In this document: positions 5,182-64,000 of the stretch, one piece after another
Layout: every line of letters starts with the position of its first letter
Position numbering within the stretch: position 1 is the first letter of the stretch
Assembly (NCBI RefSeq): GCF_024223415.1
Contig: NZ_CP100500.1
DNA length: 64,000 nucleotides
Strand: one strand, 5' to 3'
Source of the DNA: Escherichia coli
Lineage (GTDB): Bacteria; Pseudomonadota; Gammaproteobacteria; Enterobacterales; Enterobacteriaceae
The notes under the pieces: model-generated
Databases searched by the model: none
The model's input: only the letters and a program-made list of their open reading frames with translations
Told to the model about the DNA's origin: nothing
Made by a program: the position numbers and the translations under genes

Positions 5182-5515
5182 TGACACGCATTCTATTGCA
5201 CAACCGTTCGAAGCAGAAGTCTCCCCGGCAAATAACCGCCAATTAACCGTGAGTTATGCGAGTCGCTACCCGGATTACAGCCGTATTCCCGCCATCACTC
5301 TGAAAGGTCAGTGGCTGGAAGCCGCCGGTTTTGCTACCGGCACGGCGGTAGATGTCAAAGTGATGGACGGCTGTATTGTCCTCACCGCCCAACCACCCGC
5401 CGCCGAAGAGAGCGAACTGATGCAGTCGCTACGCCAGGTGTGCAAACTGTCGGCACGTAAACAAAAGCAGGTGCAGGAGTTTATTGGGGTGATTAGTAGC
5501 AAAACGCCACGCTAA
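5177..5515 (+). CDS. symE: SymE, SOS-induced toxin-like protein (type I toxin-antitoxin)
   Basis: ORF track 5120..5515; internal ATG at 5177 preceded by AGGAA gives the 112-aa product [15 protein letters not shown]... matching my recollection of K-12 SymE. Confidence 0.85.
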
Positions 5516-5523
5516 GTTTCTCT

Positions 5524-5546
5524 CCCCTTCCCCATACGTGAAGGGG
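5524..5546. terminator. Hairpin CCCCTTC-(9 nt)-GAAGGGG between convergent symE and yjiS
   Basis: 7-bp inverted repeat seen in sequence between two convergent stop codons; no clear U-run on either strand. Confidence 0.3.
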
Positions 5547-5557
5547 AATTGCCCCCA

Positions 5558-5722
5558 TCACTCCACATCCTCCTTGCGTAACCCAATATCCCTCAACCGT
5601 TCATCACTCATTTGCTGTAACACTCGTCGGGTCTGCATTTGTCGCCGCCAACGCCTCACCGCCTGCCAGAGTTGCACAAGTCTGATAAACGGCGTTTTGG
5701 CTTTGTTTTCGTGAAATTCCAT
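5558..5722 (-). CDS. yjiS: Small DUF1127-family protein YjiS (54 aa)
   Basis: Hand-translated minus-strand ORF MEFHENKAKTPFIRLVQLWQAVRRWRRQMQTRRVLQQMSDERLRDIGLRKEDVE; below the ORF-track length cutoff; matches recalled K-12 YjiS. Confidence 0.75.
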   Translation of the reverse strand: MEFHENKAKTPFIRLVQLWQAVRRWRRQMQTRRVLQQMSDERLRDIGLRKEDVE

Positions 5723-5898
5723 CTGCTGCCTCCTCATCTTTCAGAGGCTTCATCATCCGCCTTCTGGCAGTTCACAATACAGATGCAAATATTAGTTTTA
5801 TTTAACATACAGACAGGTTAAAACAGCATCTGCATCCGGTTTTTTAGCCTCATCTGTACCGGTTTTTCTCTCTGTATGGTCTAAATAAGGAATACAGC

Positions 5899-44908: not shown

Positions 44909-45923
44909 CGTTTTTCCCTTATAATTACAGACGCGCACTAGCTGTGCTGGGTTAGCAATAATCCAACATTTTTATCCTGATTATGTTTATAAAAGCGAAC
45001 GTTTGCTTAATAACTAACGTAAGTGGACCAGTTCTTCTGAGTGAACTTAAATGGGGTAGCAACAGTTAATTATAATAACGTTGCCATACAAACGCTATGC
45101 TCTTGCATGCTATGTACCTTTATATATTTATCAATCGGATACGAATCTAATAATAACCCTCATCATTAATGCAACTAATCTTATCTATATATCATGTGAT
45201 ATGTTCTGTAACAAGTAAAATCAACATAAAAAATTCAGCAAAATTTAATATTCGTTCAACTAGCCGTCTCACATATGACATTATTAGTCAACTCCATTTG
45301 CCACAAAATGGCTATTTCATGGAGCGCAGTAATTTCTTAGTGGCTATTATCATGCTAATTCTTAGGTCCCTAGCGATTATTCCTGGCTGGTTCGTCAGCT
45401 TACGCCATGAGATTGTTACATTCCTTTTTATCCTGGAGATATGGGGGAACGCAGGAGATGATTTTTTCATCTACATTCGTTGGTAAATATGGCTTTGGTC
45501 ACTACGACTTAAACCTTCCTCAATCACAGCCATTCGCCGGGCGATACGGCAAACAAACTAAGTGAAACATCATCCTGAAAACACCAACATCAACAAGCCT
45601 CTCCAGATCGACTTCAGAAGTGACCAGTTACAAGCCACAAACCAGGAAACATATTTCATGATGAGAATTATGCTCAGCCTGATGGCGGGTAAACACTGAT
45701 TTTCACCAAGCTCACTGAGTTAGCTTGCAAAGCTTCCCTTGTTTAGACTCTAAATAAATTTTTTATAAAACAAATAGTTAAAAGAAGATCTTTAGTTTTT
45801 GAAGACCACTGCAAGTGTTCGTCTGGCTTCACATGGCATCTTCCTCTTAGAAAAAGATCGACATATTTTGTGACACGAATTGCAAATCTGGTTTTGTTGT
45901 ATGGATTGCGTGATTTTTGATCT

Positions 45924-45946
45924 GGTATAACAGGTATAAAGGTGCA
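45924..45946. promoter_or_regulatory. Putative NanR operator (GGTATA-ACA-GGTATA-AA-GGTGCA repeats) in the nanC-fimB divergent regulatory region
   Basis: Two perfect and one degenerate GGTATA hexamers seen in sequence about 420 bp upstream of nanC; assignment to NanR is from recalled knowledge of the sialic-acid regulon. Confidence 0.4.
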
Positions 45947-46361
45947 CCAAGATAGTCAATGAGACAGGGCATCTCGCAATCTATGGCAAACATCACTTCA
46001 GTTCTTTCTCATCGGGTGATGAAAACGCACTTCAGTCTGAAAGGAATATGAAAATGAGATCAATAGACACTCTATTTTATGACTCTGGGTAAAATGAATT
46101 GAGTAAGTGATATAGCTTACGAACATTCAAATCAATTAAACATCAGAAGAGATTTTATACTCAGGTATTTAATCTGGCTCTCTGTTTATTTAAATAATGT
46201 GGAAAGAGAATTTTCACAGGAGACCTTATACAAAAAATATAAAATAAGCTACCCGTTGCCAAAGACACTATAAGCCTGGCAAAAAATATTACACAACATA
46301 AATGCTAATTGTTTATGCGGGCTTTGTATTGCTTTCTGTATCCTACAAATGAGTGAAATTT

Positions 46362-47078
46362 ATGAAAAAGGCTAAAATACTTTCTGGCGTATTATTACTG
46401 TGCTTTTCGTCACCATTAATTTCTCAGGCTGCGACACTGGACGTACGTGGTGGATATCGTAGTGGAAGCCACGCCTATGAGACTCGACTCAAAGTCAGTG
46501 AGGGATGGCAAAATGGATGGTGGGCAAGTATGGAAAGTAATACCTGGAATACCATTCATGATAATAAAAAGGAAAATGCCGCACTCAATGATGTTCAGGT
46601 TGAAGTTAATTACGCGATTAAACTTGATGATCAATGGACGGTGCGCCCGGGAATGTTAACGCATTTTAGCAGCAACGGCACACGCTACGGACCCTACGTA
46701 AAACTGTCCTGGGACGCGACAAAAGATCTTAATTTTGGCATTCGCTATCGTTACGACTGGAAAGCTTACCGACAACAAGACTTATCCGGTGATATGTCTC
46801 GTGATAACGTTCATCGTTGGGATGGATATGTCACTTACCATATTAATAGTGATTTCACCTTCGCATGGCAAACGACGCTATACAGCAAACAGAACGATTA
46901 TCGCTATGCAAACCATAAGAAATGGGCGACGGAAAATGCATTTGTTCTACAATACCATATGACGCCCGATATTACGCCATACATAGAATATGACTACCTG
47001 GACCGTCAGGGTGTTTACAACGGCAGAGATAATTTATCGGAAAACAGTTATCGCATTGGTGTGTCATTTAAACTGTAG
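46362..47078 (+). CDS. nanC: N-acetylneuraminic acid outer-membrane channel NanC (KdgM family)
   Basis: ORF track 46353..47078; start MKKAKILSGVLLLCFSSPLISQA (46362) with signal peptide; 238 aa. Confidence 0.9.
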   Translation: MKKAKILSGVLLLCFSSPLISQAATLDVRGGYRSGSHAYETRLKVSEGWQNGWWASMESNTWNTIHDNKKENAALNDVQVEVNYAIKLDDQWTVRPGMLTHFSSNGTRYGPYVKLSWDATKDLNFGIRYRYDWKAYRQQDLSGDMSRDNVHRWDGYVTYHINSDFTFAWQTTLYSKQNDYRYANHKKWATENAFVLQYHMTPDITPYIEYDYLDRQGVYNGRDNLSENSYRIGVSFKL

Positions 47079-47097
47079 TAGACAGGAGACAGTCACA

Positions 47098-48204
47098 ATG
47101 AATAAAACAATAACGGCGCTTGCTATCATGATGGCTTCATTTGCCGCAAACGCGTCTGTATTACCGGAAACTCCTGTGCCATTTAAAAGTGGTACCGGAG
47201 CAATTGATAACGACACTGTCTACATTGGTTTAGGTAGCGCAGGTACGGCATGGTACAAGCTGGATACACAGGCCAAAGATAAAAAATGGACAGCGTTAGC
47301 TGCATTCCCTGGCGGACCAAGAGATCAAGCAACCTCTGCATTTATTGATGGCAATCTGTATGTGTTTGGCGGCATTGGCAAAAACAGCGAGGGCTTGACT
47401 CAGGTATTTAATGACGTACACAAATACAACCCCAAAACCAATAGCTGGGTTAAATTGATGTCGCACGCGCCGATGGGCATGGCGGGCCATGTGACTTTTG
47501 TACACAACGGCAAGGCTTATGTTACTGGCGGTGTTAACCAGAATATCTTCAATGGCTATTTTGAAGATCTCAACGAGGCTGGAAAAGATTCAACCGCTAT
47601 AGATAAAATCAACGCTCACTATTTTGACAAAAAAGCAGAAGATTATTTCTTCAATAAGTTTCTGTTGTCTTTTGATCCCTCAACACAGCAATGGAGTTAC
47701 GCTGGCGAATCTCCCTGGTACGGAACGGCTGGTGCGGCGGTTGTGAATAAAGGTGATAAAACCTGGCTTATTAATGGCGAAGCCAAACCAGGATTGCGAA
47801 CGGATGCCGTATTTGAACTTGATTTCACCGGCAATAATTTAAAATGGAATAAGCTTGCTCCCGTCTCATCACCAGATGGCGTCGCTGGCGGTTTTGCGGG
47901 GATAAGCAATGATTCTCTTATATTTGCCGGAGGGGCCGGATTCAAAGGTTCACGAGAAAATTACCAGAACGGTAAGAACTATGCGCATGAAGGCCTGAAA
48001 AAATCATATAGCACTGATATTCATCTTTGGCATAACGGGAAATGGGATAAATCGGGTGAATTATCGCAAGGTCGGGCCTACGGAGTATCATTGCCCTGGA
48101 ATAATAGTCTATTGATTATTGGCGGTGAAACTGCAGGCGGCAAAGCGGTGACGGATTCAGTTTTGATCTCTGTGAAGGATAATAAAGTCACAGTACAAAA
48201 CTAA
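47098..48204 (+). CDS. nanM: N-acetylneuraminate mutarotase NanM (Kelch beta-propeller)
   Basis: ORF track 46990..48204 overlaps nanC; ATG at 47098 (MNKTITALAIMMASFAANA, signal peptide) gives 368 aa. Confidence 0.9.
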   Translation: MNKTITALAIMMASFAANASVLPETPVPFKSGTGAIDNDTVYIGLGSAGTAWYKLDTQAKDKKWTALAAFPGGPRDQATSAFIDGNLYVFGGIGKNSEGLTQVFNDVHKYNPKTNSWVKLMSHAPMGMAGHVTFVHNGKAYVTGGVNQNIFNGYFEDLNEAGKDSTAIDKINAHYFDKKAEDYFFNKFLLSFDPSTQQWSYAGESPWYGTAGAAVVNKGDKTWLINGEAKPGLRTDAVFELDFTGNNLKWNKLAPVSSPDGVAGGFAGISNDSLIFAGGAGFKGSRENYQNGKNYAHEGLKKSYSTDIHLWHNGKWDKSGELSQGRAYGVSLPWNNSLLIIGGETAGGKAVTDSVLISVKDNKVTVQN

Positions 48205-48268
48205 CGCTTCAGGGCCCCAGTAAAGGGGCCCTGCTATCAATTTGTCATTTCAATTACGCGAAATTTAT

Positions 48269-49249
48269 ATGAACGCAATAATATCGCCTGATTATTACTA
48301 TGTTCTTACCGTTGCTGGTCAGTCTAATGCCATGGCGTATGGCGAAGGACTGCCATTACCGGACAGGGAAGATGCGCCTCATCCCAGAATTAAACAATTA
48401 GCGAGATTTGCGCATACGCATCCCGGAGGCCCGTCATGTCACTTTAACGACATTATTCCACTGACTCACTGCCCACACGATGTTCAGGATATGCAGGGTT
48501 ATCACCATCCTCTGGCAACGAATCATCAAACACAGTACGGCACCGTTGGCCAGGCACTGCATATTGCACGGAAATTACTGCCCTTTATTCCTGATAACGC
48601 AGGGGTTCTCATCGTTCCGTGTTGCCGTGGCGGATCGGCTTTTACCGCGGGCAGCGAAGGGACATATTCAGAACGGCACGGAGCCAGCCATGATGCTTGT
48701 CGTTGGGGAACGGATACTCCGCTATACCAGGATTTAGTCAGCAGAACGCGAGCCGCATTGGCAAAAAATCCGCAGAACAAATTCCTCGGCGTATGCTGGA
48801 TGCAAGGCGAATTTGACTTAATGACCAGTGACTACGCGTCACACCCTCAACACTTTAATCATATGGTTGAAGCCTTTCGTAGGGATCTAAAACAATACCA
48901 TTCTCAGCTTAATAATATTACTGATGCGCCCTGGTTTTGCGGCGATACCACCTGGTACTGGAAAGAAAATTTCCCTCATGCGTATGAAGCTATTTATGGC
49001 AATTACCAAAATAATGTTTTAGCCAATATTATTTTCGTCGACTTCCAGCAACAAGGTGAAAGAGGACTGACGAACGCGCCTGATGAAGACCCGGACGATT
49101 TAAGCACGGGATATTACGGTTCAGCGTACCGGTCACCGGAGAACTGGACGACGGCACTGAGAAGCAGCCATTTCAGCGCGGCAGCCCGTCGGGGGATTAT
49201 TTCTGACAGGTTTGTAGAAGCAATTTTGCAGTTTTGGCGCGAAAAGTGA
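48269..49249 (+). CDS. nanS: 9-O-acetyl-N-acetylneuraminate esterase NanS
   Basis: ORF track 48242..49249; start MNAIISPDYYYVLTVAGQSNA at 48269; about 326 aa. Confidence 0.85.
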   Translation: MNAIISPDYYYVLTVAGQSNAMAYGEGLPLPDREDAPHPRIKQLARFAHTHPGGPSCHFNDIIPLTHCPHDVQDMQGYHHPLATNHQTQYGTVGQALHIARKLLPFIPDNAGVLIVPCCRGGSAFTAGSEGTYSERHGASHDACRWGTDTPLYQDLVSRTRAALAKNPQNKFLGVCWMQGEFDLMTSDYASHPQHFNHMVEAFRRDLKQYHSQLNNITDAPWFCGDTTWYWKENFPHAYEAIYGNYQNNVLANIIFVDFQQQGERGLTNAPDEDPDDLSTGYYGSAYRSPENWTTALRSSHFSAAARRGIISDRFVEAILQFWREK

Positions 49250-49379
49250 GCGTTCATTAATTTGATTTATTCGCATCCATCAACGCTTTTAACTCCTCCG
49301 GCGTGCGGCACTATAACGACTTCCACAACAAGGAGCCATTTTCTTATACCACTTTCAGTGACCATCCGCTTATGCCACC

Positions 49380-49790
49380 ACCCTCTACGCAACTGTTTGC
49401 AGAGCACCTTCCCACCGAGTGGATACAGCACTTCCTGACGCTTTCTGCTCATGCGACCGTTCGTCGTCTTAACCTGAGCGTGGATGGCGAAGCGGGGATG
49501 AACCTGCTGGCGCCCGCAGCGCTGTCACCCAGGCGCGTCAGCGCGTGGGGGCCGCCCCGGTGGAATGGCTCTTCCGCCAGACCGCACAGACATGGGGCGC
49601 GGAACGTTACCTGAAGGATGACTGGCACGGCCTGCAACTTTTTGCCATTGATGGCGCACAGTTCAGGACACCTGATGAACCCGAGCTGCGTGAATATTAT
49701 GGCTCTGCCAACACATCCACTGAGCGGCAGAGCGCCTACCCCGTCATGCGTCTGGTGGCGTTAATGAATCTGGGAATCACATTCTACTGA
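49380..49790 (+). pseudogene. Remnant of an IS4-family transposase gene (N-terminal region, frameshifted and truncated)
   Basis: Two consecutive frames (49303..49614, 49545..49790) give ...TVRRLNL... and ...WHGLQLFAIDGAQFRTPDEPE...YPVMRLVALMNL, resembling the IS4 transposase N-terminal LTLLAIDGVFWRTPDTPE...YPQVKMVCQMEL region from memory; no intact ORF or terminal IRs seen. Confidence 0.45.
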
Positions 49791-50742
49791 ATGCCATGAC
49801 CGCGCCTACCAGCGGAGCGATACGGCGTGAGGCAACAAAAGCGGCGTCAGAGATCAGCTTTAAGTTCGCGTTCCAGTTTATCGTGACAGAAATGATAGTG
49901 CTGGGAAACACGGCGTCACCGGGGACTATCCCGAAACGACTGGAGCATCTGCGGGGGCTCTGGAAGTGGTGTTCATAACAAAACGCCCCCGACCATCAAG
50001 GGCGAGGGCGGTTAAGATATCAAAAACCCGTTATCCTGTGAAACACAGTGCCGCCCCGATTAAGTGAACGGCATTGTGTTTCTGAGGGACCTTAATTTTC
50101 CCTGATTCTCTGACGTTCCTTACCATTGATATTTCCTTCATTCCTCACCAGAGAAATAAAAAATCACTATACTCATCAAAATATGAGATTACCTTTATTC
50201 AGGTGATCACCTTACTATTTTTTACGGAAAATAAATTATGAATAACAAGAAATCACTGACAAACCACCTGTAAAATGTCAATCATTTTAGTTCAATTGCC
50301 TTTGTCATGATTATCTTTTTATCGTCCTGACGATACTATTAACAATTGCAATTTTTATACCCCTCCTGAACAAATAGAAAAGAACTAATATATTCGTTTA
50401 TAATTCTGGTAATCCTGGCATCATACGTTTAAAACTTAAGATATTTATTTTATCATCATCATGGTTCCAGAGACTATTGGTCAGCTGGAAATGCCAGCCT
50501 TTTCGTGCCAGCTATATTTGTCCAGTGTGTCACCCCATCCAAAAATCATCCACATCCTGACGTTACGTTAGATATAGAGAAAACAGGTTGTACTGTGCAA
50601 TATGCAAACCGCATAAGCGAATATAATTTCTAAGTTGATATTGTCTGGCTGTTGGGAGCTAAGCAATATAAATATCGCCAGTTGCCAGAACGGTTATATA
50701 GACCAGGAGCGTTTCGGCTCCTGGCCTGTTTTGGACATATTA

Positions 50743-52857
50743 TCAGTCAGCCACTAATAGCGGACTAGGGACACCAGATGATGAAACAAACAGCCCTTTT
50801 ACGGCACGGGTTGCAGCCACATGCAGTAACGCGCGCTCATTAAATAATGCATCACGCTGTTCAACGGGATCATCGGATGCTAATGCTTTTATTTCCGGCA
50901 CAACGCCTTCGTTAATCCCCACCAGGAACACATACTGGAACTCAAGCCCTTTAATACGGTGCATCGTTGCAACCCGCACGCCAGGGCGTGCATCGCTGTC
51001 ACCGCTATCATTGCCTAAATTAAATGTCTCAATTCCGGCGTCATTCAGTGCTGATGCGTAGCGGTCACAAGCATGTTTAGTACGCGCAGTAATGCAGATA
51101 TCCTGAGAACGAACCTGATTCGCCAGCAATGCCTGAATTTGCTTGACGAGCGTTGCAGCCTCTTCTTTGAAATCTGCCGCATGCGTAATCATGGGCTTTT
51201 CCCCGTGCAGTAATGACAAATAATCATTACTGGTATCCGCTTCGCCATCGAGGTTATCAACCTTCACACCAGTTAACAGCCCAACAGCAAATTGACGCGT
51301 CTCTTCTGTGGTCCGATAGTTAATCTTCAATTTTTTACTGCGACGACCACGGACGTTAATACCACACTGACCAAGAACGACCTTATTGCGATAAATACGC
51401 TGATGCCCATCCCCGACAATAAACAGATCGTTGGGCGACTCGGGAACCAGGCTGCGAATAAGAGTAAATGCCGGGGCACCGATATCTTGAGCTTCATCGA
51501 CCACAATACTGCTATAAGGTAGTTGGACCTGCTTTTCTTTAAACAGAACAATAGCCTCATGCATGGCATCGCCCATTTCGCGCAGTTTGGCACGCGCCAT
51601 TTGTGCTCTGAATTCTTCAAAGACTGGCCAGATTTTCGCCCGTTGAATACGGGATAACGCTGTACCACGTCCAACCCGGCTGACTTTGAGGTATTCCTCC
51701 CGGGTGTAAACCGCATTTGGCTGGACAACGCGTTGCCACTCTTCAGCATAGAAATTATCAGGTAGCCCCAGTTCGGCAGGTGCCTGCTGCAAGGCATAGT
51801 TCCAGCATTTGCGTCGCCCTTCATCGCTGTCGTATACCACGCGGAAATCATAACCGTGGCGTTTTAGTTGGTCGCTCATCCAGGCATCAATGTTAACGAC
51901 GTCAATACGCGCCATCTCTTCTCGCGTACACAACCGCTGGAGATTAGCGCGAATATCTGCCGCCAGGTTACGCGTAAAGGTCGTGAAAAGTACCTTCTTA
52001 CCGGGTTTATCTGCCAGACGCTGAGATAACCACCGCGCACGGTGCATCGCAACAACCGTTTTCCCTGTACCTGCACCGCCCAGTACTCGTACCGGACCAT
52101 TAGCGGGCGACTCCACCAGTTTTCGCTGGCTCGGATGCAGAAATACACGCCATTTTTCTAAAGGCGCATTAAGCATCTGCAACAGCTCCTGTTCATTTTC
52201 AACGACATGGAAGCGACGTTTACTTCGTTCAATCGCCTCCATAAAGTCGTTGGTATCAACAGGCTCATCACGATGATCGTTAAACTCTTCCAGCACTTCC
52301 TGGTAATCCAGCCCTTCTGCCAGCCAGTGCAGAGGTTCCCAGGCTTCTGCTGGCATTATGCTTTCAAGTTGGTTAAGCCCGGCTTCATCGGTAAGCGCCA
52401 TCACCTGATCAATAAAGACAGGCGGCACGCCCAGGGCCAGAATCTGTTCCGCGCTGTAAGCCGCGAAGAGTTTCGGTTTATCAACCACCGCTTCCGGTGC
52501 CGGTTTGATATAGCTAATATCAATAACCTGAATCGCGCCGGTAACTGGGTGAATCGAACAATCATGCCGCCGCGCCCAGTCGTATGCTTCGTCGTGTTTA
52601 TCCACCCACATCAGCATATACAGGGCACCCTGTTCAGGTTTCAGAACAATGCCGCGATAAGTTTGATCGATTCGCACCGAATGGACATTTTTACTGCGCG
52701 CATCGTGGATCTTTTCATAGTTAAGTCCATTACTGGTCGGGTCCTGACGGAATTTGGAGATGAATTCCTGCACCTTTTTTTGCTGTGCTTTTGGGATCCG
52801 CGCGAATGCGCCCAGAAAACCATCAGAAAGTGCCACCTTGGGCGTTTGCACCGTCAT
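50743..52857 (-). CDS. UvrD/Rep-like SF1 helicase (704 aa) with about 250-aa N-terminal domain of unknown function; third gene of candidate defence operon
   Basis: Walker A LGGAGTGKT (aa 259-267), Walker B/motif II VVDEAQD, C-terminal motif MHRIKGLEFQYVFLV typical of UvrD/PcrA family; ATG overlaps upstream gene stop (ATGA at 52854-52857). Confidence 0.85.
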   Translation of the reverse strand: MTVQTPKVALSDGFLGAFARIPKAQQKKVQEFISKFRQDPTSNGLNYEKIHDARSKNVHSVRIDQTYRGIVLKPEQGALYMLMWVDKHDEAYDWARRHDCSIHPVTGAIQVIDISYIKPAPEAVVDKPKLFAAYSAEQILALGVPPVFIDQVMALTDEAGLNQLESIMPAEAWEPLHWLAEGLDYQEVLEEFNDHRDEPVDTNDFMEAIERSKRRFHVVENEQELLQMLNAPLEKWRVFLHPSQRKLVESPANGPVRVLGGAGTGKTVVAMHRARWLSQRLADKPGKKVLFTTFTRNLAADIRANLQRLCTREEMARIDVVNIDAWMSDQLKRHGYDFRVVYDSDEGRRKCWNYALQQAPAELGLPDNFYAEEWQRVVQPNAVYTREEYLKVSRVGRGTALSRIQRAKIWPVFEEFRAQMARAKLREMGDAMHEAIVLFKEKQVQLPYSSIVVDEAQDIGAPAFTLIRSLVPESPNDLFIVGDGHQRIYRNKVVLGQCGINVRGRRSKKLKINYRTTEETRQFAVGLLTGVKVDNLDGEADTSNDYLSLLHGEKPMITHAADFKEEAATLVKQIQALLANQVRSQDICITARTKHACDRYASALNDAGIETFNLGNDSGDSDARPGVRVATMHRIKGLEFQYVFLVGINEGVVPEIKALASDDPVEQRDALFNERALLHVAATRAVKGLFVSSSGVPSPLLVAD

Positions 52858-55800
52858 TTGTCACCTCCGGACAGATGTTGCAATGTATTTTCGTCAATTG
52901 GCCCGAATGCAACGTGCCAACCTCTGGTTGTGAATAATGGAATAAATTCTTGATTATCAATAATCAATGCCCATTTTTGTGATGGCCAGGCGAGATCGGC
53001 TTCCGCAATAATTTCACCTTCATCATTTTGCAATTCGTAGCCGAGAGTCGGCGCAGAGAGAGAATGAGACTGAAGCAACGCGATCTCTTCAGCGCTTAAT
53101 AAGCCAAACTCAATAATCTCAGCCCAACTCTCATCAGTCTCTGGTACTGCCTCTGGCGTTGCCGAAACTTTAGTGTCAACGCTTTCCTGCGGTAAATGCA
53201 CGGCTTTACGGCTGGTAAAGGTCATATCCGGCAGGAACTGTAACAGGTTTACCAGTCGCCAGAAGCCATTGAGTCCCGCTTCATAACCGTCATCCTGCGT
53301 ATAGCGATCGTCAAAACAGATATGCAAACGCAGCCAGCTGCGCATTTGTGCGACGCTGGTCGTCGGTTTAATGGCTTGTTGTGGCAACACCGAAGCCAGC
53401 TCAATAAATTGCTGCGATGAGTTACAGCTATCGAGTAAACCACCAAAGACAAACGGTTCGTCTGGCAAAAGCTCTGCTAGCCGCCAGGCTGGCGCGTTTT
53501 CCTGCATTTCATAGGCATACTTTTGTTTCGTTCCCGCGTCCTGTGACTTCTTCACATCCAACCACACCCAGGCATGTGCAGCAGCCATTCTCTGCCATAA
53601 CTGCGTTCTTCCGCCCGGATCGGCGAGATAATCCAGCAGCAGTGCAAAACTGTTGCGTTCCCGGAACGACGCTTCAAGGGCCGCAAAGTTGGTATCGTGA
53701 AACAGGTTATAAAACTTAGGCTGTTTCATATCCGGGTTATGCCCAAGTCCCAGGACATCCTGAACATGTTTAAGCCCAGGCTCTTTGAGATCGGCCCACG
53801 TGACTGTCCACACCCAGAAATTACCGCTATCCCGAATCGCCTGGCGTTTTTGCACATCCTCTGCGACGCTATTTTTGTGGAACGCAAAGCCATCAAGGAA
53901 AATAGCCACCGGTTTAATGACATCAGACTGCATAAGCGGATATAGCACGTAATCCGGGCGACAAGGGATCCCCACCGCCTCTTTAGCGCCTAAATCCACC
54001 TGAGCTTTAAGATGCCAGCTCATCATCGGTTCGCTGCGGGTGTTAATAATCCACCCAGCGCCCTGATGCGCGTAACTGCGACTGACAATCAGGTTTTTAT
54101 TTTCTTGCAGGCAGCTAATAAACCGTTTTTCCAGCTCACTGCCCATCATGGCTTCGAGGGAAATGTTTTTGATGGAATCAATTACCCGTATCGAATCTCT
54201 TGCCTGCAAAATTTTCGCCAGCAAGAGACGCGCCTGATCGCGGGAGACATACTTCATGCGCCCACGGTCACGGTAAGCGTAAACGCAACGATAACAACCA
54301 TCTTTATGCGTATCATTGTTGCAACTGCATTCCACTATTGCCTGATAGGCCAGTTCAAGTAATTTCAGCAAATTGTCGGGAGTGCGCATCAGCTCTTTAA
54401 GAGAACCAGTTCCCCCCGGGACGGTATCGTAAATCACCAGATACTGCCTCCAGGATTCGCCTTCATTTTCCGGCTCGCGGTACACAACGCCTTTCAGGTG
54501 ATCGACATTCCCCTTGAAGTAATGTTTAAGGCCGAGCTGGATCGCCGCCCCAAGAGAAGCCTCCACGACACGGTCATTACTGTAACTGCTTACCGGGAGC
54601 AGAATACGCAACGCTTCTGACTCCAGCTGGCGATAGAGATAGAGATAATCTTCGAACTTCGCCTTTTCCGGTTCCGTGCGATATTTGCAGCTCAAATCAT
54701 GACGTGGTTCATGATCGCGAGGACGCTGCACCATGCCGCACCCGAGGCAAACTTTAAACCCGGTTCGCTTCTTCGCTTCTCCGGCAATCATCAACTCATT
54801 GGCATCATCCGCCATTTTGCCGAAGTTGATATCCCGCAGGGTGACTTTGCTTAAAAATTCAAAACCAAACGGAACTTCGCCTTCCTCAATCGCGTATGCC
54901 GCCGATACATCTTCTTTTTCGAAACTAACCAATAGCTGACGCTGGAAGAAAGCAGGTTCACGGCTGTCGCTATCGTCGCTGATCTGGCTATCACGTGCGC
55001 TGGCGCGGGCATAAACCTGGCGAAGTTTCAGCAGCGTGGTTTTTTGTCCGGCATCGGCCCACCCCGGTGTGCCACATTTCGGGCAATATTTATGCTGGTC
55101 GCCCGTCTGGTCGATATTTTCGCTGTAGTTACAGTGGCTACAGATACGCCAGTTCTCCGGCTCAGAGACCTTCAGGTCTATCTGCTCAATTTCAACTTTA
55201 TGCCCACCGGCATAGAAATTATTCAGCGGAGCCAGCTCAGCCAGCGCCGTTGATGCCGGGCGTTCATATTCGAAAGTGGTGTTTTGATATTCACGCGCTT
55301 CCCCGCCTTCTTTACGCCGCCAGAGCACAGAACGTAACGTAATACCGGCTTCCGGGAAGGCGTAGTTAGGCAGCAGACCTTCATCCGTGAGGAAATTCAG
55401 CGTTTGCTTATTGTTGATTTGATTGACCAGCGCCATCAGCGCCTGCCGTTCTGAAGTCAGTTCGCGCATATCGCTGTCAAAGTTTTGATCGCGCGGCGCG
55501 TTCTCCAGTTTATCGATGCTGCGCTTGAGTTTATCGATGCGTGAGCGCAAAGATTTGCGATCTTCCACCAGCAGTTTTAACGCTTCTTCGATACGCTGCA
55601 CCAGCGAACGTTGCCCTGGCGCGCCCTGAAGATAAGACAACAGCTGTTGGCGAGTTTCTGCGGCAAGATCGGGGAAGATCGCCGTAAATTGTGCAGCAAT
55701 CTCCGCATGATGCTGTTCGATATATCGCAGTAAGTTATACGGAAAACCCGATTTACGCCCGAACTCCAGCTCATCCAGCATCTGTTTGACGTTTTTACAG

Positions 55801-58800
55801 ATAGCGGATTCTGGTACACCGGTTTTCACCCAGTTATCCATACAAAAAGCTGCCAGCTGGCGTTCGAGAATAGCCGTTGCATTGAGGAAGACGCCAGGAG
55901 CCTGCACCTGGCCCTGCATCATCTCCAGCGGTTCTTCAAAGAAAAACTGATCGTGCGGGTTCCCTTCTGCCACGGTAATGTTTAACGCGTTACCATCTTT
56001 ACGACCGGCGCGACCAATACGCTGCAAGTAGTTGGCCTGAGCAGGTGGGACAGAACAGAGTAAAACGGTGGAAAGATCGCCAACGTCAATACCCATCTCC
56101 AGCGTCGGTGTTGCCGACAACAGGTTGATATTCCACGGTTGGTTGCCGCGGTAGAACGATTTTTCGGTGGCTTCGCGATCTTCACGGCTAAGCAGCCCCG
56201 TGTGTTCTGCGCCCTGTACGCGCGCGATGTCCATGTTCTCCCAACGCCAGGTCGCCGTATTGTCGACTTCCTGGTAACGACCTTCACAACGTAAAGAGAG
56301 ACAAGGCGCATTACGCCACTGCCAGCCTTGATCGGCCGGAGCCCGGACAACCTCACGGCAACATGAACAATTAAGCTGAACGACGTCACGGCTCACCACC
56401 AGCGCCGAAGGCACCAGTCCCCAGGCTTCACGCCCTTTGGTGTCAAAATCTTTTACTACTCCGGCTATTTTCAACGCCGTAAACAGGCGTCGTAACACTG
56501 TTTCCGCAACGCTACTGATAAACAGATTATTGCCGTTACTCAGCGTGCGATTGATCCAATGCTGATACCAACTGGGGTTAGACTTCGCGCCAATCAGGCG
56601 ATGGAAACCATTAATTTTTTCAAACGACGCATAAGCCGGTTTACGCGTTTTCGGACCGATAGAAGGCATATAGCGCGAGGTACGCTCTTTTTGCGTCATC
56701 ATAAAGGTCGTGCCATCACGGCGATAACTTTCGAACGCCGGATGCATAACGGCCCCGGCCTGGCGTTGATACCAGATAACCCCCAGCGCCAGGTGCGCGA
56801 CCTGCTCGACGCTCACACCGGACATCTCATCACCCAGCTCTTCACAAAGCTGTTGATGCAGGGCGGTAATTGCCGGATTAAAGCGTTCTTTATCCACTCC
56901 GGCAACGGCATAACCGGTGGCTTCCAGCGTACGTCCGATACGCGCGCGCAGGGTGAATTCGCTGTACACCTCCCAGTCGAGGCGCAGGGAAACCAGCTCC
57001 GGCAGATCGGAGTTCTCCGCCAGTTTGCCTTCATTTTTCAGCATCTGATAATCATTCAGCCACTGCATATTTGGTGCGATGAAGTTCGCTGCAAAATGAG
57101 CATCGTCCGGTGAACGTTCACGCGTTTGTTGGCAAACACGCGCCGCGAACGCATCCAGCGGTAATGTCTCTTTTTCGCCAAGAACACTGGCGATTTGCCC
57201 ACGAATCATCAGCGGCCAGGTACGGGCAGTAAAGAAGCTGGCACGATGCGCGGCGTCTTGTACCGAGTCAGAAAACGTAATCAGCTTTTTATGTTCGTTG
57301 AACTGGCTGCCATAAAGCTGGTGAATCATCACCGCCGACAAACTGGCAGCCCGTGACCCCAGGATCGAAATCCCCTGTTTGCTGTTGCAGTACGGGCATT
57401 CATTAGCAAACTCCAGCTCGTCCTTACGCTCTTTGAGCATATCCGGGATCAGTACCTGCAACAGTTCCGTATGACCGCAATGTCCACACTGGACGCTGGA
57501 CTGTCGGTTCAGTTTCAGACAGGTAGGACACAGTTTCTGGTGTGCGCCACTGACCGCTTTTTCGTTGTTATCCGGGAAAGCAAGGACGATGGAGCGTCCT
57601 TTTTCAAAGAACTGGCGATAAATGCCGTCGAGGTCTGTTTCCAGCTGAACGCTTTGCCCATGACGCAGGCTGGCCCAGCCAGTTGCGTGGCAGTCACGGC
57701 AGTGGATAACCGGCAAATAGTGTTCGCGATCTTCCACCGCCACATCATCGGCAAACACCAGTCGGGGCGTTTTCGCCACGCTGGCGACCAGACGACGCAT
57801 CTCACGAAGCCACAACTGGGAGCGCAGTTGCACAAACGGCAGCACCGGACGCGCTTTCTTCGCCTGGAGACGTTTTTGCCGATCGTGTTCCGTTTCCGGT
57901 ACTTCGAGACGTGCCTGTGCGATCAGCGCCAGAATGCTTTGCAGCACGCGTCGGGCATGGTCGGCGCTTTCTGCCAGCATGACCTGGAGATTTTCCAGAC
58001 ACTCTCGTTCAGAGAGGATCCCGCCTTGCAGATCATGGAGTAAGACATGCATCACGCTGTGGCGGCGTAACAGTGACCCCAGCGCAATACGCTTTTCACG
58101 CCCGTCGTCGCTCTCCAGATCGTCCGGGAGTTGCAAGTCGCTGTCGGGGAACCACAAAGGGATTTGCCCGTTAAGATACGCTACCGGGGTAGCGTAACTC
58201 TGCGGGTCCAGGGCCGAAGCGACCTCCGGCCCCGGATACTGACTGTACGCAATGGCGTAATCCTGCAAGTACTCCGCTGCCGTGTAGCGATCTTCGCGAA
58301 TAACGGCGTCATCGGTAAACGGCTGGTCAAAGATTGTTTTTGCGTAATCGAGCAGTTGCCCCAGCTCGTCGCCGACGGTAGCTGATGTCCCGACGCAGGC
58401 GAATCGTTGGTTATCTACACCTATGTGATGCTTCAGACGTCGCACCAGACAGGCCAGATCCGACCCTTGCGCGCCATCAAACGTATGCAATTCATCCACG
58501 ACCAGGTAACGCAATGAACCGGGCTGGTTGTAACGCCAGAGCGGCTGATCGCCAGGGCGCATCAGCAGGTAGTCGAGCATTTTGTAGTTGGTCAACAGGA
58601 TGTCCGGCGGGCTTTCGCGCAGCGTGTGCTTGCAGGTAATGACCTTTTCTGCCGACATTTTTTTGCTGGGTTCGATTTCGCTGTCGCCGACAAACAGGCC
58701 GACGGTCACCTTGCCATGCAGTTGTGTATCGCTGGCGATGGTTTTGGCGAAACGGCTGGCCTGATCGGTTGCCAGGGCGTTCATCGGGTAGATGATAATC

Positions 58801-59195
58801 GCTTTAACCCCGGCTTGTGACGCGCCCGCGCAGTGGTTGAGCAGCGGGAACATAAAGCATTCTGTTTTACCGGAGCCGGTACCGGTAGCAACCAGCGTCG
58901 GCTGTGGCGCGTCGCTTCCCAGACGCTGAAATGCCCGGGCCTGATGCGCGTGCGGCGGGAACGGCAGCGTCAGATTAGGGAAGAAATTCAGCGGTAAGTC
59001 ACTTTTACGAAACGGCAACTGGGCGGAAAGGTATGGTCCTTTCAGCAGCGTTTCGGGCTGGGCCAGAAATTGCTCCAGCATTGAGACATTATCGTTATTC
59101 TCACCGTTAAACAGCGGACTGTTTAGCGGGAACGCCGCCCGTAAAAAGGCGGCAACGCTGTCGGCGACCTGCCGACTGACAACGGATGGCAGCAT
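52854..59195 (-). CDS. Giant multidomain SF2 (DExH, Lhr-like) helicase, 2113 aa, with zinc-ribbon/Cys clusters (DUF1998-like) and C-terminal Vsr/DUF559-like endonuclease motif; second gene of candidate defence operon
   Basis: Motif I ATGTGSGKT (58863-58883), Ia YPMNALATDQ, II VVDELH (58485-58496), V LEMGIDVGD and VI QRIGRAGR about 800 aa later; Cys clusters CSHCN...CPKCG and CSC...DGCYRC; FLDGFAFH...RQAIRDSG near aa 1740-1800 (about 53796-53978); start codon overlaps stop of upstream gene. Confidence 0.85.
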   Translation of the reverse strand: MLPSVVSRQVADSVAAFLRAAFPLNSPLFNGENNDNVSMLEQFLAQPETLLKGPYLSAQLPFRKSDLPLNFFPNLTLPFPPHAHQARAFQRLGSDAPQPTLVATGTGSGKTECFMFPLLNHCAGASQAGVKAIIIYPMNALATDQASRFAKTIASDTQLHGKVTVGLFVGDSEIEPSKKMSAEKVITCKHTLRESPPDILLTNYKMLDYLLMRPGDQPLWRYNQPGSLRYLVVDELHTFDGAQGSDLACLVRRLKHHIGVDNQRFACVGTSATVGDELGQLLDYAKTIFDQPFTDDAVIREDRYTAAEYLQDYAIAYSQYPGPEVASALDPQSYATPVAYLNGQIPLWFPDSDLQLPDDLESDDGREKRIALGSLLRRHSVMHVLLHDLQGGILSERECLENLQVMLAESADHARRVLQSILALIAQARLEVPETEHDRQKRLQAKKARPVLPFVQLRSQLWLREMRRLVASVAKTPRLVFADDVAVEDREHYLPVIHCRDCHATGWASLRHGQSVQLETDLDGIYRQFFEKGRSIVLAFPDNNEKAVSGAHQKLCPTCLKLNRQSSVQCGHCGHTELLQVLIPDMLKERKDELEFANECPYCNSKQGISILGSRAASLSAVMIHQLYGSQFNEHKKLITFSDSVQDAAHRASFFTARTWPLMIRGQIASVLGEKETLPLDAFAARVCQQTRERSPDDAHFAANFIAPNMQWLNDYQMLKNEGKLAENSDLPELVSLRLDWEVYSEFTLRARIGRTLEATGYAVAGVDKERFNPAITALHQQLCEELGDEMSGVSVEQVAHLALGVIWYQRQAGAVMHPAFESYRRDGTTFMMTQKERTSRYMPSIGPKTRKPAYASFEKINGFHRLIGAKSNPSWYQHWINRTLSNGNNLFISSVAETVLRRLFTALKIAGVVKDFDTKGREAWGLVPSALVVSRDVVQLNCSCCREVVRAPADQGWQWRNAPCLSLRCEGRYQEVDNTATWRWENMDIARVQGAEHTGLLSREDREATEKSFYRGNQPWNINLLSATPTLEMGIDVGDLSTVLLCSVPPAQANYLQRIGRAGRKDGNALNITVAEGNPHDQFFFEEPLEMMQGQVQAPGVFLNATAILERQLAAFCMDNWVKTGVPESAICKNVKQMLDELEFGRKSGFPYNLLRYIEQHHAEIAAQFTAIFPDLAAETRQQLLSYLQGAPGQRSLVQRIEEALKLLVEDRKSLRSRIDKLKRSIDKLENAPRDQNFDSDMRELTSERQALMALVNQINNKQTLNFLTDEGLLPNYAFPEAGITLRSVLWRRKEGGEAREYQNTTFEYERPASTALAELAPLNNFYAGGHKVEIEQIDLKVSEPENWRICSHCNYSENIDQTGDQHKYCPKCGTPGWADAGQKTTLLKLRQVYARASARDSQISDDSDSREPAFFQRQLLVSFEKEDVSAAYAIEEGEVPFGFEFLSKVTLRDINFGKMADDANELMIAGEAKKRTGFKVCLGCGMVQRPRDHEPRHDLSCKYRTEPEKAKFEDYLYLYRQLESEALRILLPVSSYSNDRVVEASLGAAIQLGLKHYFKGNVDHLKGVVYREPENEGESWRQYLVIYDTVPGGTGSLKELMRTPDNLLKLLELAYQAIVECSCNNDTHKDGCYRCVYAYRDRGRMKYVSRDQARLLLAKILQARDSIRVIDSIKNISLEAMMGSELEKRFISCLQENKNLIVSRSYAHQGAGWIINTRSEPMMSWHLKAQVDLGAKEAVGIPCRPDYVLYPLMQSDVIKPVAIFLDGFAFHKNSVAEDVQKRQAIRDSGNFWVWTVTWADLKEPGLKHVQDVLGLGHNPDMKQPKFYNLFHDTNFAALEASFRERNSFALLLDYLADPGGRTQLWQRMAAAHAWVWLDVKKSQDAGTKQKYAYEMQENAPAWRLAELLPDEPFVFGGLLDSCNSSQQFIELASVLPQQAIKPTTSVAQMRSWLRLHICFDDRYTQDDGYEAGLNGFWRLVNLLQFLPDMTFTSRKAVHLPQESVDTKVSATPEAVPETDESWAEIIEFGLLSAEEIALLQSHSLSAPTLGYELQNDEGEIIAEADLAWPSQKWALIIDNQEFIPLFTTRGWHVAFGPIDENTLQHLSGGDK

Positions 59196-62100
59196 CAGGC
59201 GTTCTCCTTATCTTGTGCAAAGAACGCCCAGGCCACTTTGTAGTCGTCTTCGCGATCTGGCTTGATAAACGGAGCCTGCCAGGTGACGGTGCGGCGCTCG
59301 CCTTCGTCGCTGCGGGTATAGTCATCAAAGGTGACGCTGACGGTACCGGTTTTCAGATGTTTGACATCATCCCAGCCGATGGCTTGATCGGTGCAGTCAC
59401 CGCCGGTCCACTCCGGGCTGTCGACGTTAAAGACAAAGCTGTTTTTCAGATCAGCTTTACGGGCGGTACGCGGCAGACCGACGCCCACCAGCCCTTTGCT
59501 TGGGGTAAAGATGATGCGGCCGTTTTGGTCGTACCAGGTGTCCGCTTCGTACTGGCGCATCACCGGGAACTGTACACGGTAAATGGTAAGCAGCTCTTCG
59601 AGAGTTAACCCCAGCGCCTGTGCCACCAGCACGTCGATTTCCACCAGCGCCTGACGACGACTGTAGTCGGAGCGTAAGGCGCAGTTACGCTGCCACTCTG
59701 GGGTCAGATTGGTGAAGAAATCTTGTGGCAGCAGCGGGAGATCGCGGCTCCAACGCTGGGTGTTGAAGTCTGGGGTGTAGCAGGATTGCCAGAGATCGGC
59801 GTAATCTTTCGTTAACACATTCAAAGCTAATGCTCTTGAGTTTGCACTCATTAGCTCAACATAAGGGAAGCCACGCAATGTTGATTCATAAACATCCGCC
59901 CGTCCTGTTGTTTTCAAATAAAAATCAGCCACTATTGAATGGCAAAATGCAGAGAAACTTAGCAGGTTTATTGGCTCTCTAAATGTTGTTGAGAGTACAG
60001 GGTGTATATGAGCAACGTGCTTTGGAACTATGCTGGATATCATCGAGCGTTCTGATGATGCCCCAAACATTCTCCGATTAACAAAACGATAATAATCCGT
60101 CACCTTCCTCGGCTCGTCTTCATCCTGCTCTTTCCACGAAACCCGTGGGGTGCGCTTTGCATACTCCTGTGCATCACATGCCGGAATGTAGTTAGTTCGC
60201 GGCAGGTAATCGTCGGGCAGGGTTAATAAATCAAGGCAATCATAATGGCTATTTGCCTCACAGAGAGCTCTTGGTGTCTTATTGAAAGGATTACCCACGA
60301 AGAAATGGGGACCAGACAATACCCATTGAGAAGCATCTTTTGGATACATTGTTTTACGCTCGATAGTGCCATCAATTTGCTGATTTGTTTCATGCCACAT
60401 TTCCAGAGAAAAATACTGGCCTTGCAAATCGCCTAATCGCTTCGGCTGATTGGCAAATTTTTCCAATACCGCGACAAGTTGCTCTGCGTGCAAAGCGGGA
60501 AGACGAGCCTGTAATGCTGGCGTGTCGGGTTCATCATACAAACGAGCAAATAAAGCTAGCTGCTCTTTCGTGACACGAATAAGCCTGGATTTATGACCTT
60601 TAGTATTCCATCGGCTATAGTAAACATCTTTTATATAACCTTCTTCCTTAATGCCACCAACCAATCCATCACCTGAATGCTCAAAACTCTCATCAAGAGT
60701 TGAAGGAATAAAAAGATTATTAATATTAATAAACTCCACGTCGTTCGATTTGGTCATAGAGTAAACATGTGTCCCAAATTTCATTCGACCGTGATCATTT
60801 GTTCCAACAAATAGAGAAAACTCATTTTGATATTGGCAATGTAGACGTAACCTTGGATAGATCTCTTCTCTGAAGAGCCCTCCCTTAGGATCGTCATATA
60901 CCCCCTCTGGGTGAACAAATCCTGCCACGCCTTTCTCTGCCCCCAGACGCCAGGCCTGAGGCAGGAAGCATTTATACAAGTTGGTCTGCACCCCGCGCAG
61001 TACCGGGTAGTTTTGCTGCGCATTGAGGAAGTTTTGCATCCCTTCACAGCCTTCATACTCGCTGCGCCAGGCCGCTTCCAGCGCCGGGATCTGGTTAAAG
61101 GTATCAATACGCAACGTTGCCAGCTTCGATGCACTCAGCTTACGCAGCACAAATTCCGGCTCGTAATCACCCAGCACGCCCGCTTCCTGCCATTCCACTT
61201 TCAGCCACGGCGGGTTTCCGAGCATCAGGTCAAAACCGCCGCGCTCGGCAAACAGGTCGCAGAACTCCAGATCCCAGTGGAAGAAACGGTGCTGCTTTCT
61301 CAGGGCATCGACAATCGCCAGACGCGGCAAATGGCGGAACAGCACATCGGTTTTCAGACGACCAGCAACGGAAAACAGCGAAGACTCTTCTCGCAGCAGG
61401 CCTTCTTCGGCAAACAGATCGCCAGTAGTGCGCTCCGCAACTTCAGTGACTTTTTCCGTAATCACAATCCCGTCGAGCAGGGTTTCAATCTCAAACAACC
61501 AGGTACCGCGATCCGGTAACTCATCGGCTTTGTCGATCGGCCAGAACCACAGCGCGCACCAGTAGTCCATCACCCAACGCAGCTTCTGGTAGGCGCTGTT
61601 ATCTTCAAGACGACCGCTAAAGGTTTCATCTTTACTGCTCAGCGAAGAACGCGTCTGCTCGCTGTTTTCTGCCGGCCACACCGGGTAGCTGTCGGCGGTT
61701 TTCAGACGTTCTGCTTTAAGTTGCTGGCGATAGGTGTTCCACAGTGCTTCCACCTTTTCGCTGATACGCTGCACATCAGCAATCTCATGCCCGGCAAAGC
61801 TTTTAATAAACTCTTTGCGCCAGCTGTCCAGCGCTTTGAAGTCATCCGGATAACGCTGCTTAACAGTTTTATCGCTGTAGTTAGCCATACCGCCGTCGGG
61901 CAGCAGGAAGTGGAAAATCTGCGTCTCTTCACGCGGCGTGTTCATCGCCAGTTCGACCGGCTCGCTGTTAAGCCAGCTAGGATCTTTGGCTTTTTTGTAG
62001 GTCAGTTCGCTCTTGTTGAACACCTGACGGCGCGCGCCCACCAGCGAGTTACCGCAGTGCAGCTGGTAACCAAACCACGGTACAAAGGCATCGCCACTGA

Positions 62101-64000: not shown

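Follow-up and report, generated by a model that had tools for sequence, protein, structure and literature searches.

A large methyltransferase gene cut by the edge of a stretch of Escherichia coli DNA is very probably armB of an ARMADA type II operon

The window, a 64,000-nt stretch of Escherichia coli DNA (contig NZ_CP100500.1), ends inside a long minus-strand gene that we refer to as armB, followed downstream by armC and armD (Table 1). The armB frame has no stop before the TGA at 59197-59195 and stays open through base 64000; in a near-identical genome the annotated gene starts at an ATG 126 nt past the window edge and encodes 1643 aa. Only 42 N-terminal codons lie outside, and the truncation is due to the window edge only. 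A sequence-only reading of this stretch had rightly described the frame as open at the edge; its expectation of an even larger protein held for just those 42 residues. Its residue numbers for three motifs (505-508, 547-556 and 912-921) are right when counted from the GTG at 63967, the start of the predicted ORF within the window; counting from the first visible codon adds 11, and the full-length numbering used here adds 53. The full gene, which that reading had proposed to obtain, is intact at 1643 codons, ruling out an upstream frameshift or stop that would make armB a pseudogene, and exactly this protein (P0002, not P0001) is encoded intact in many assemblies. Chance does not account for an open frame of this length whose motifs are kept in 84 diverged family members (34-58% identity).

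Table 1. Features of armB and its downstream neighbours, with positions in the window
Feature	Position	Strand	Basis or remark
armB CDS, codons 43-1643 + stop	59195..64000	-	Identical to P0002; 0 mismatches to L006 over 14.8 kb
N-terminal alpha/beta domain, aa 105-235, restriction-endonuclease-like fold	63422..63814	-	Candidate acidic/lysine residues E139, D213, K216
Helical region before methyltransferase core, aa 236-540	62507..63421	-	Contains RISYxQLGINQLGAVYExLLSY segment
Motif X, YYTP, aa 558-561	62444..62455	-	YYTP in 78 of 84 diverged homologues, FYTP in 5, YYSP in 1
Motif I, CEPAMGSAAF, aa 600-609, SAM-binding loop, holds G605	62300..62329	-	Sequence and 84 homologues
Motif II (FGVDLNP, aa 655-661) to motif III (HCGNSLVG, aa 690-697)	62036..62161	-	Strands beta-2 and beta-3 of Rossmann fold
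Family-specific insert, ~267 aa, aa 698-964	61235..62035	-	AF2, 84 homologues, CamA collinearity, PADLOC profile gaps
Motif IV, FDLMLGNPPW, aa 965-974, catalytic adenine-binding loop, holds N971	61205..61234	-	Sequence, homologues, CamA alignment, AF2
Hypervariable cassette V1, aa 1081-1200, beta-rich, directly after core	60527..60886	-	Putative target-recognition domain part
Hypervariable cassette V2, aa 1361-1450	59777..60046	-	Putative second specificity module
Conserved C-terminal domain, aa 1481-1643	59198..59686	-	At least 91% pairwise identity among close homologues; high pLDDT
armC, 2113 aa, YprA/DruE-like DEAD/DEAH helicase, MZB (DUF1998), C-terminal nuclease region	52854..59195	-	99.6% identical to O157 ArmC
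armD, 704 aa, UvrD/GajB-like helicase	50743..52857	-	99.7% identical to O157 ArmD

The genes armB, armC and armD are translationally coupled: the armC ATG overlaps the armB TGA by 1 nt, and armC and armD overlap by 4 nt (ATGA). Both downstream genes are intact in the window. ArmC matches MZB at E 8e-13 and DruE models at E 5e-104, against 4e-14 for DrmA, and carries a predicted active Vsr-type nuclease; in ArmD the UvrD domains begin at aa 241, and Pfam finds nothing in the 240 aa before them. Directly upstream of armB, every genome read that has exactly this ArmB carries armA, which encodes 952 aa with a SNF2-rel_dom domain, and armA is intact in all five such places. The NCTC10444 record, in which 7 of 20,001 bases differ from the window, has a 1-bp deletion that truncates armA after 214 codons; in L006, an exact match to the window, the neighbouring druE is split.

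ArmB carries its motifs in the gamma-class order X, I, II, III, IV, with (N/D)PP(Y/F/W) on the loop that follows beta-4 in a Rossmann fold; GVDLNP of motif II lies at 62144-62161 and HCGNSLVG of motif III at 62036-62059. Each listed motif is unique, the whole protein holding a single [NDS]PP[YFWH], and the motifs are conserved across the 84 homologues. The sequence-only reading had picked out motifs X, I and IV and spacings of about 360 residues between I and IV and about 670 after IV, and all of this holds: the measured distances are 355 aa between motifs I and IV, counted end to start, and 669 aa beyond motif IV. Its assignment of NPPW as catalytic motif IV also withstood scrutiny, as NPPW is collinear with motif IV in the CamA alignment, the predicted strand beta-4 directly precedes it in the AF2 model (aa 468-1643, pLDDT 88.2, built from an alignment of 47 sequences), and N971A is reported to abolish defence in the O157 orthologue, with both armB and the NPPW asparagine required (available text of bioRxiv 10.1101/2025.09.15.676423).

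Motif I reads G-S-A in place of the classical GxG. Pfam matches on the core, to Eco57I and MmeI_Mtase, are split and weak (Eco57I only E 3e-4), and aa 1-600 gave no Pfam match. Sequence searches of solved structures gave no match for full ArmB and chance-level matches only for the motif X-III and motif IV fragments; only the ArmB family profile reached CamA and DrdV. Foldseek placed BrxX/PglX first (E 4e-12), in agreement with the resemblance to BREX PglX proposed earlier.

The core is split by a mostly helical insert, which AF2 places between beta-3 and beta-4; a loop at aa 889-923 has low confidence and is likely disordered, and the insert ends with an FHW(D/E)LEF helix. All 84 diverged homologues have it, at lengths of 228-406 aa, and the CamA alignment leaves about 260 extra ArmB residues before NPPW. 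At this site PADLOC profiles span 6-10 positions in compact type IIG enzymes, 125-163 in DrmMI and about 240 in the ArmB type. The insertion is thus unusually long by the standard of compact enzymes, as had been claimed, with the caveat that PglX and the DrmMI-type profiles carry inserts there too, though shorter ones. The long insert is genuine, but it is a hallmark of the whole family and no peculiarity of this protein. We infer that it may be a docking surface for partner subunits.

Upstream of the core, the conserved RISYxQLGINQLGAVYExLLSY segment occupies aa 468-486 (window 62669-62725). In the N-terminal domain the candidate acidic residues are kept in only 72% and 89% of homologues, and ArmB has no canonical (D/E)xK. 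Downstream of the core, variation among close homologues is limited to aa 1081-1480. V1, compared among proteins whose N-terminal 697 residues are at least 94% identical, occurs as 12 sequence types with a median pairwise identity of 0.50, and its GC content is 0.44 against 0.55-0.58 in the flanks; V2 occurs as 15 sequence types (median identity 0.35, GC 0.40), and 29 V1/V2 combinations were found. This variability and the GC trough point to a target-recognition region within the roughly 560 residues from aa 1081, consistent with the earlier suggestion that the residues after motif IV could serve target recognition.

We suggest that the ORF is, with high probability, armB, which stands second in the anti-phage operon armA-armB-armC-armD of ARMADA type II, and that ArmB is very likely a single-chain PglX-like gamma-class N6-adenine DNA methyltransferase doubling as specificity factor. 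Gene and system are already known: ARMADA type II (armABCD), a four-gene E. coli system, is named and tested in E. coli O157:H7 in two 2025 preprints (bioRxiv 10.1101/2025.09.15.676423; 10.1101/2025.09.22.677730). As described in the available text of the first, type II systems have the strict order BrxHII/DrmD-like Snf2 helicase, PglX-like methyltransferase, YprA-like helicase and GajB-like UvrD helicase (10.1101/2025.09.15.676423); the YprA-family helicase is reported to have a DUF1998/MZB domain and to be closest to Druantia DruE helicases, and ArmD to fuse an N-terminal RelE-like domain to its UvrD helicase. The same order is found here, with armB, armC and armD in the window and armA upstream in genomes with exactly the same ArmB; the sizes (952, 1643, 2113 and 704 aa) and the order agree with those genomes and with O157:H7. 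Identity to the O157 proteins is 99.9% for ArmA, 89.8% for ArmB, 99.6% for ArmC and 99.7% for ArmD, and each of the eight residues that Bell et al. mutated stands at its published position, the G605A site in motif I and the N971A site at the N of NPPW.

Functional work on this system comes from O157, as reported in the text available to us. [quoted passage not shown] Deletion of armB in EDL933 leaves growth unchanged without phage, and ARMADA II is reported to be the main determinant of phage resistance in EHEC O157:H7, working in synergy with the Druantia III beside it (10.1101/2025.09.22.677730). The literature searched gave no methylation data for this or any ArmB, and a methylated motif, even methylation of host DNA, is therefore put forward here as prediction; methylation of the adenine of a specific motif is ArmB's predicted activity. 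Three points go beyond what the available text of the two preprints describes: the N-terminal restriction-endonuclease-like fold of ArmB, the two hypervariable low-GC C-terminal cassettes reassorting among strains (12 and 15 types), and a specificity predicted to differ from that of the O157 allele.

We propose that ArmB is built, in order, of a nuclease-like fold, a helical spacer, the split Rossmann core, a recognition region with its pair of exchangeable cassettes, and last the conserved C-terminal domain. If ArmB works as BREX PglX and DISARM DrmMI do, a short, probably asymmetric, DNA motif would be read by the recognition region; the core would flip out an adenine and methylate it with SAM, and host DNA would thereby be marked as self. 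Sites left unmethylated on incoming DNA would be recognised likewise and would license the three motors (ArmA, ArmC and ArmD) together with the nuclease of ArmC; these would then block phage replication, and the cell would survive.

ArmB being more than a PglX-like methyltransferase, with an active N-terminal nuclease, the insert as a coupling platform, and reassorting V1 and V2, is a speculative extension that we consider unlikely. The N-terminal domain, with its E139, D213 and K216, could be catalytic, making ArmB a type IIL-like nuclease-methyltransferase in a three-helicase machine; the helical insert could link the ArmA and ArmC motors to the sensing of unmethylated sites; and V1 and V2 could each reassort on their own, as in the two-domain specificity subunit of a type I system but here within one polypeptide, re-programming specificity across E. 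coli lineages. That ArmB instead acts alone, as a bifunctional type IIG/IIL enzyme (MmeI/DrdV-like) whose N-terminal PD-(D/E)xK-like domain cuts while the remainder methylates and recognises, the helicases being independent, is improbable. The three candidate residues are present and fairly conserved, and the best PADLOC models on ArmB are labelled REase_MTase_IIG (E 4e-289); but this label is an HMM name with no tested activity behind it, the canonical motif is missing and the acidic residues vary as given above, armB is one of four genes in a fixed operon and is translationally coupled there, and the reported O157 data make all four genes necessary, with ArmC having its own predicted active nuclease.

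That the gene is DrmMI of a class 1 DISARM system is a reading that we consider very improbable. In its favour, DrmMI models match ArmB at E 4e-57, the gene upstream of armB gives E 3e-60 with DrmD, the insert site of ArmB also bears an insert in DrmMI-type profiles, and DefenseFinder reportedly marks the locus as DISARM I-related (10.1101/2025.09.22.677730). However, the DrmMI matches fall in three separate stretches and the insert matches no DrmMI model; separate DrmA, DrmB and DrmC genes are absent, the YprA helicase being one 2113-aa protein that scores as DruE far above DrmA; the fourth gene is UvrD-like; and Bell et al. report these systems as a separate clade (available text of 10.1101/2025.09.15.676423). 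Membership of class 1 DISARM was rejected, as a DrmD-like gene is present but the helicase shares one DruE-like protein with DUF1998, and a separate PLD gene is lacking. BREX PglX was likewise rejected: the annotated or called neighbours include no BREX component, and ArmB reaches just 25-27 bits with the NCBIfam methyltransferase models for BREX-1 and BREX-6, whose cut-offs are 500 and 900. That armB is an orphan or decaying gene, left in a degraded island and without defence function in this strain, is scarcely credible, for despite the truncated armA of NCTC10444 and the split druE of L006, armB itself is intact, as are armC and armD in the window and the 952-aa armA in all five places with the window's exact ArmB.

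With the gene read as armB of ARMADA type II, ArmB is the only component of the system able to give sequence specificity, and the mapped motifs, insert and two cassettes mark the sites at which mutations or swaps could reveal the motif that ArmB recognises. Exchangeable cassettes may account for armB varying more than any other gene of the island; knowledge of armB alleles could be used in choosing or engineering therapeutic phages against strains with different alleles. The sequence-only reading of the gene was correct, but it had not recognised the named, experimentally tested ARMADA type II.

The nearest known system is that of O157:H7 (NCTC 12900; EDL933 z5899-z5902), which has the same operon and island. 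Its ArmB is 1644 aa long against 1643 here, is 97-100% identical outside the cassettes and shares the numbering of G605 and N971, but it is only 45% identical in V1 and 31% in V2; the window allele therefore probably reads another DNA motif. DrmMI of DISARM is likewise a large gamma-class adenine methyltransferase beside Snf2-type and YprA-family helicases, and its loss, like that of ArmB, is non-toxic; that of Serratia sp. SCBI class 1 DISARM methylates ACACAG. It differs in that its profiles have about 125-163 positions at the insert site, against about 240-270 residues in ArmB, whose insert has no detectable similarity; in that DISARM defence survives drmMI deletion whereas ARMADA is reported to need armB; and in its partners, the split DrmA, DrmB and DrmC as opposed to the fused ArmC and ArmD.

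BREX PglX/BrxX (PDB 8C45, 8Q56, 9EWZ) shares with ArmB an N-terminal domain, a helical spacer, a gamma methyltransferase and a C-terminal recognition domain, and in both the methyltransferase is required for defence, and in BREX for modification too. In PglX the distance between motifs I and IV is already extended, at 194 aa (structure paper) compared with 366 aa in ArmB; a search with the motif IV fragment gave no NCBIfam match. ArmB exceeds PglX by about 420 aa, its nuclease-like alpha/beta fold stands where PglX has an N-terminal helical bundle, and BrxA, BrxB, BrxC, PglZ and BrxL are absent near armB. The type IIL/IIG enzymes MmeI, DrdV and BpuSI differ in that compact type IIG profiles have only 6-10 positions at the insert site; ArmB, unlike them, has no canonical (D/E)xK and, as reported, works only with three helicase partners. 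In compact gamma-class CamA, grouped with M.BseCI and M.TaqI, about 37 residues lead from the motif II region to the motif IV block, a stretch that covers about 297 profile positions in ArmB.

On its minus strand, window 59195-64000 translates into 1601 sense codons of armB, which encodes the methyltransferase subunit of ARMADA type II; a single stop closes the frame at its end, and the frame is still open where the window ends. The ORF caller takes the first in-window GTG as start (59195..63967), and the residue numbers of the sequence-only reading are exactly those of this GTG-started frame. E. coli NCTC10444 is nearly identical to the window here (1 mismatch in 5 kb) and is annotated with a 1643-aa "class I SAM-dependent DNA methyltransferase" whose ATG lies 126 nt past the window end, so the window hides just 42 ArmB residues: the earlier description of a truncated gene for a larger protein was right in that the frame is open at the edge, but armB itself is intact. 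The window ArmB differs from that of NCTC10444 in the last residue (last codon Ala versus Ser); over the comparison that takes in window 45017-59200 the two records differ at 7 of 20,001 bases, this codon included, so the window stems from another, closely related genome. A contig of GCA_900482235.1 matches the window with 0 mismatches over 14.8 kb. At least 80% of the armB stretch is present in about 494 of the 5426 complete E. coli genomes, and Salmonella, Klebsiella and Enterobacter have close homologues 1629-1647 aa long. Of the 534 E. coli matches to armB and the beginning of armC, 16 fall on ~100-kb plasmids (about 99-102 kb), so extrachromosomal elements carry the system too.

Features of ArmB, its profile alignment with CamA, and motif III-IV spacing across profile families
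Feature	Position	Detail
Helical segment	ArmB aa 15-102	AF2 model
Alpha/beta domain	ArmB aa about 105-235	AF2 model
Long helices	ArmB aa 259-335	AF2 model; lead into conserved YExLLSY segment
Conserved helix segment	ArmB aa 468-486	YRQLGINQLGAVYEALLSY
Motif X	ArmB aa 558-561	YYTP
Motif I	ArmB aa 600-609	CEPAMGSAAF
Motif II	ArmB aa 656-661	GVDLNP
Motif III	ArmB aa 690-697	HCGNSLVG
Motif IV	ArmB aa 965-974	FDLMLGNPPW
V1	ArmB aa 1081-1200	hypervariable; 12 types; median pairwise identity 0.50
V2	ArmB aa 1361-1450	hypervariable; 15 types; median pairwise identity 0.35
Profile alignment	ArmB profile 525-628	CamA 26-119
Profile alignment	ArmB profile 925-938	CamA 156-169 (CamA NPPY)
Profile alignment	ArmB profile 1000-1052	CamA 184-236
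Compact type IIG profiles		6-10 positions between motifs III and IV
Other type IIG profiles		108-168 positions between motifs III and IV
DrmMI profiles (four models)		125-163 positions between motifs III and IV
ArmB-type profiles (two models)		about 240 positions between motifs III and IV

The sequence-only reading had set motifs I and IV about 360 residues apart, with some 670 residues C-terminal to motif IV; in full-length ArmB these distances are 355 and 669, and the pattern (N/D/S)PP(Y/F/W/H) has a single occurrence in the entire protein. Structure bears out the proposed resemblance to PglX. With an AlphaFold2 (AF2) model of ArmB 468-1643 (pLDDT 88.2, pTM 0.87) as query, the top Foldseek matches were four BrxX/PglX structures (E 4e-12 to 9e-11), with CamA, M.BseCI and M.TaqI ranking next. 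A structural comparison scored M.BseCI 20.2, CamA 20.1, HsdM 19.3, PglX 19.1, LlaBIII 17.4, M.TaqI 17.3 and MmeI 16.7, the longest alignment (521 residues) being with PglX. The ArmB family profile aligns collinearly with CamA, leaving ~260 extra ArmB residues immediately before motif IV. From strand beta-3 (LHC, 689-691) the modelled chain enters a ~270-residue excursion, chiefly of helices and with a low-confidence loop at 889-923, until strand beta-4 (FDLMLG, 965-970) returns the chain directly ahead of NPPW.

This ~270-residue insert is common to the ArmB family and no peculiarity of the window gene. All motifs are retained across 84 representatives (clusters at ≤50% identity; 34-58% identity with ArmB), with gaps of 228-406 residues between motifs III and IV (median 275) and 312-560 between I and IV (median 368). 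The family-wide motifs YHFLLPD and MDYWCALWFWP lie within the insert, which sits on the Rossmann fold, away from the motif order; we conjecture a role in protein interaction, which would fit this conservation and placement. For other families, spacing between motifs III and IV was obtained by scanning the core halves separately against PADLOC profiles; apart from one weak partial match, the insert alone matched ArmB-type models only. Between motifs I and IV, Salmonella PglX (GxG 315-317, NPPY 509-512) has a spacing of 194 residues, versus 366 in ArmB. The insertion is thus unusually long, as first described, relative to compact enzymes, but spacings in the PglX/DrmMI lineage form a graded series, with ArmB at its long end.

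Variation is concentrated in two C-terminal cassettes, V1 and V2. In a set of 118 close homologues (87-100% overall identity), identity is at least 94% over the N-terminal 697 residues, where motifs X and I-III lie, and at least 91% over the conserved C-terminal domain; the stretch between the cassettes is moderately variable. There are 29 V1/V2 combinations, and one V1 type occurs alongside seven different V2 types, a pattern indicating recombinational reassortment. Identity of the window ArmB to the O157 allele is 97-100% outside the variable region, 76% between the cassettes, 45% in V1 and 31% in V2. GC content is 0.40-0.47 in 300-bp bins spanning window 59800-60999, which take in most of the variable region, versus 0.55-0.58 elsewhere in armB and armC, as though a donor of lower GC had supplied the specificity region. 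The drop coincides with both cassettes (window 59687-60886, armB codons 1081-1480).

ArmB residues 1-600 have no Pfam match; the N-terminal AF2 model (pLDDT 89.7) has three parts. The modelled fold is a candidate nuclease-like one, with E139, D213 and K216 as putative active-site residues. All three are present in the window ArmB, and among 47 homologues position 139 is acidic in 72%, 213 acidic in 89% and 216 basic in 98%; they do not form a canonical (D/E)xK. According to Bell et al., the predicted active nuclease is the Vsr-type domain of ArmC.

armB sits in a minus-strand operon. The ATG of armC, encoding a 2113-aa DEAD/DEAH helicase, overlaps the armB stop by one base; ArmC has an MZB/DUF1998 domain and its top profile matches are Druantia DruE models. 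Its extreme C-terminus (aa about 2021-2096, approximately window 52857-53130) matches the HNH-endonuclease part of Zorya II ZorE models (PADLOC E 6e-9, NCBIfam E 3e-4), and an authentic zorABE operon is present in the same island; Bell et al. describe the ArmC nuclease domains as Vsr-type and EEP. armD, joined to armC by an ATGA overlap, encodes a 704-aa UvrD/GajB-like helicase whose first 240 residues (window 52138-52857) have no Pfam match and are labelled RelE-like in the literature. Just past armD, the NCTC10444 annotation of window 48491-50067 has a nanS-like pseudogene (truncated sialate O-acetylesterase) and a transposase-domain gene with a frameshift, adjoining nanC and nanM; this is probably the defence-island boundary beside the fim-nan region. 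Directly upstream of armB, outside the window, armA encodes a 952-aa Snf2/DrmD-like helicase, intact in each of the five genomes examined that have the exact window ArmB. NCTC10444 armA has a 1-bp deletion (CCC to CC, at about 22388 of its record, which would map to about 66387, beyond the window) and its frame stops after 214 codons; this may be a genuine change or a homopolymer error of long-read sequencing. Further upstream lie a canonical Druantia III pair, DruH and DruE, each matching its best PADLOC model end to end (E reported as 0), and then Zorya II. In the locus identical to the window over 14.8 kb, druE (603-6916 of that record) is called as products of 922 and 1160 aa versus one of 2104 aa, so that strain may carry a disrupted Druantia III, the system that acts in synergy with ARMADA II.

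armB is already known as a component of a named, experimentally validated system. Two 2025 preprints describe exactly this armABCD arrangement (Bell et al., 10.1101/2025.09.15.676423; O-island 172, 10.1101/2025.09.22.677730). In the definition of Bell et al., a type II system has ArmA, ArmB, ArmC and ArmD in strict order. They report that the E. coli NCTC 12900 system is anti-phage and non-abortive and requires all four genes, that ArmB N971A (NPPW) abolishes protection, making this catalytic asparagine necessary for defence, and that G605A weakens it. In EDL933, ARMADA II is reported to be the dominant defence and to act synergistically with Druantia III; without armB the strain loses defence yet grows no differently when phage is absent, and armB is the most variable gene of O-island 172 (10.1101/2025.09.22.677730). 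The window-matching locus is 99.9% (ArmA), 99.6% (ArmC), 99.7% (ArmD) and 89.8% (ArmB) identical to an O157:H7 genome, and each of the eight residues that Bell et al. mutated occupies its published position, G605 (motif I) and N971 included. The reported N971A result on the orthologue settles that NPPW is motif IV; the initial observation is correct and its interpretation essentially right. Our additions are incremental: a quantified insert series, a candidate nuclease-like N-terminal fold, and reassorting low-GC cassettes. A literature search turned up no methylome data, and a 2026 review still lists ARMADA among systems of unknown restriction mechanism. By analogy with PglX and with DrmMI, which methylates ACACAG, we suggest that ArmB would methylate an asymmetric host motif, and that the same recognition would direct ArmA, ArmC and ArmD against unmethylated DNA.
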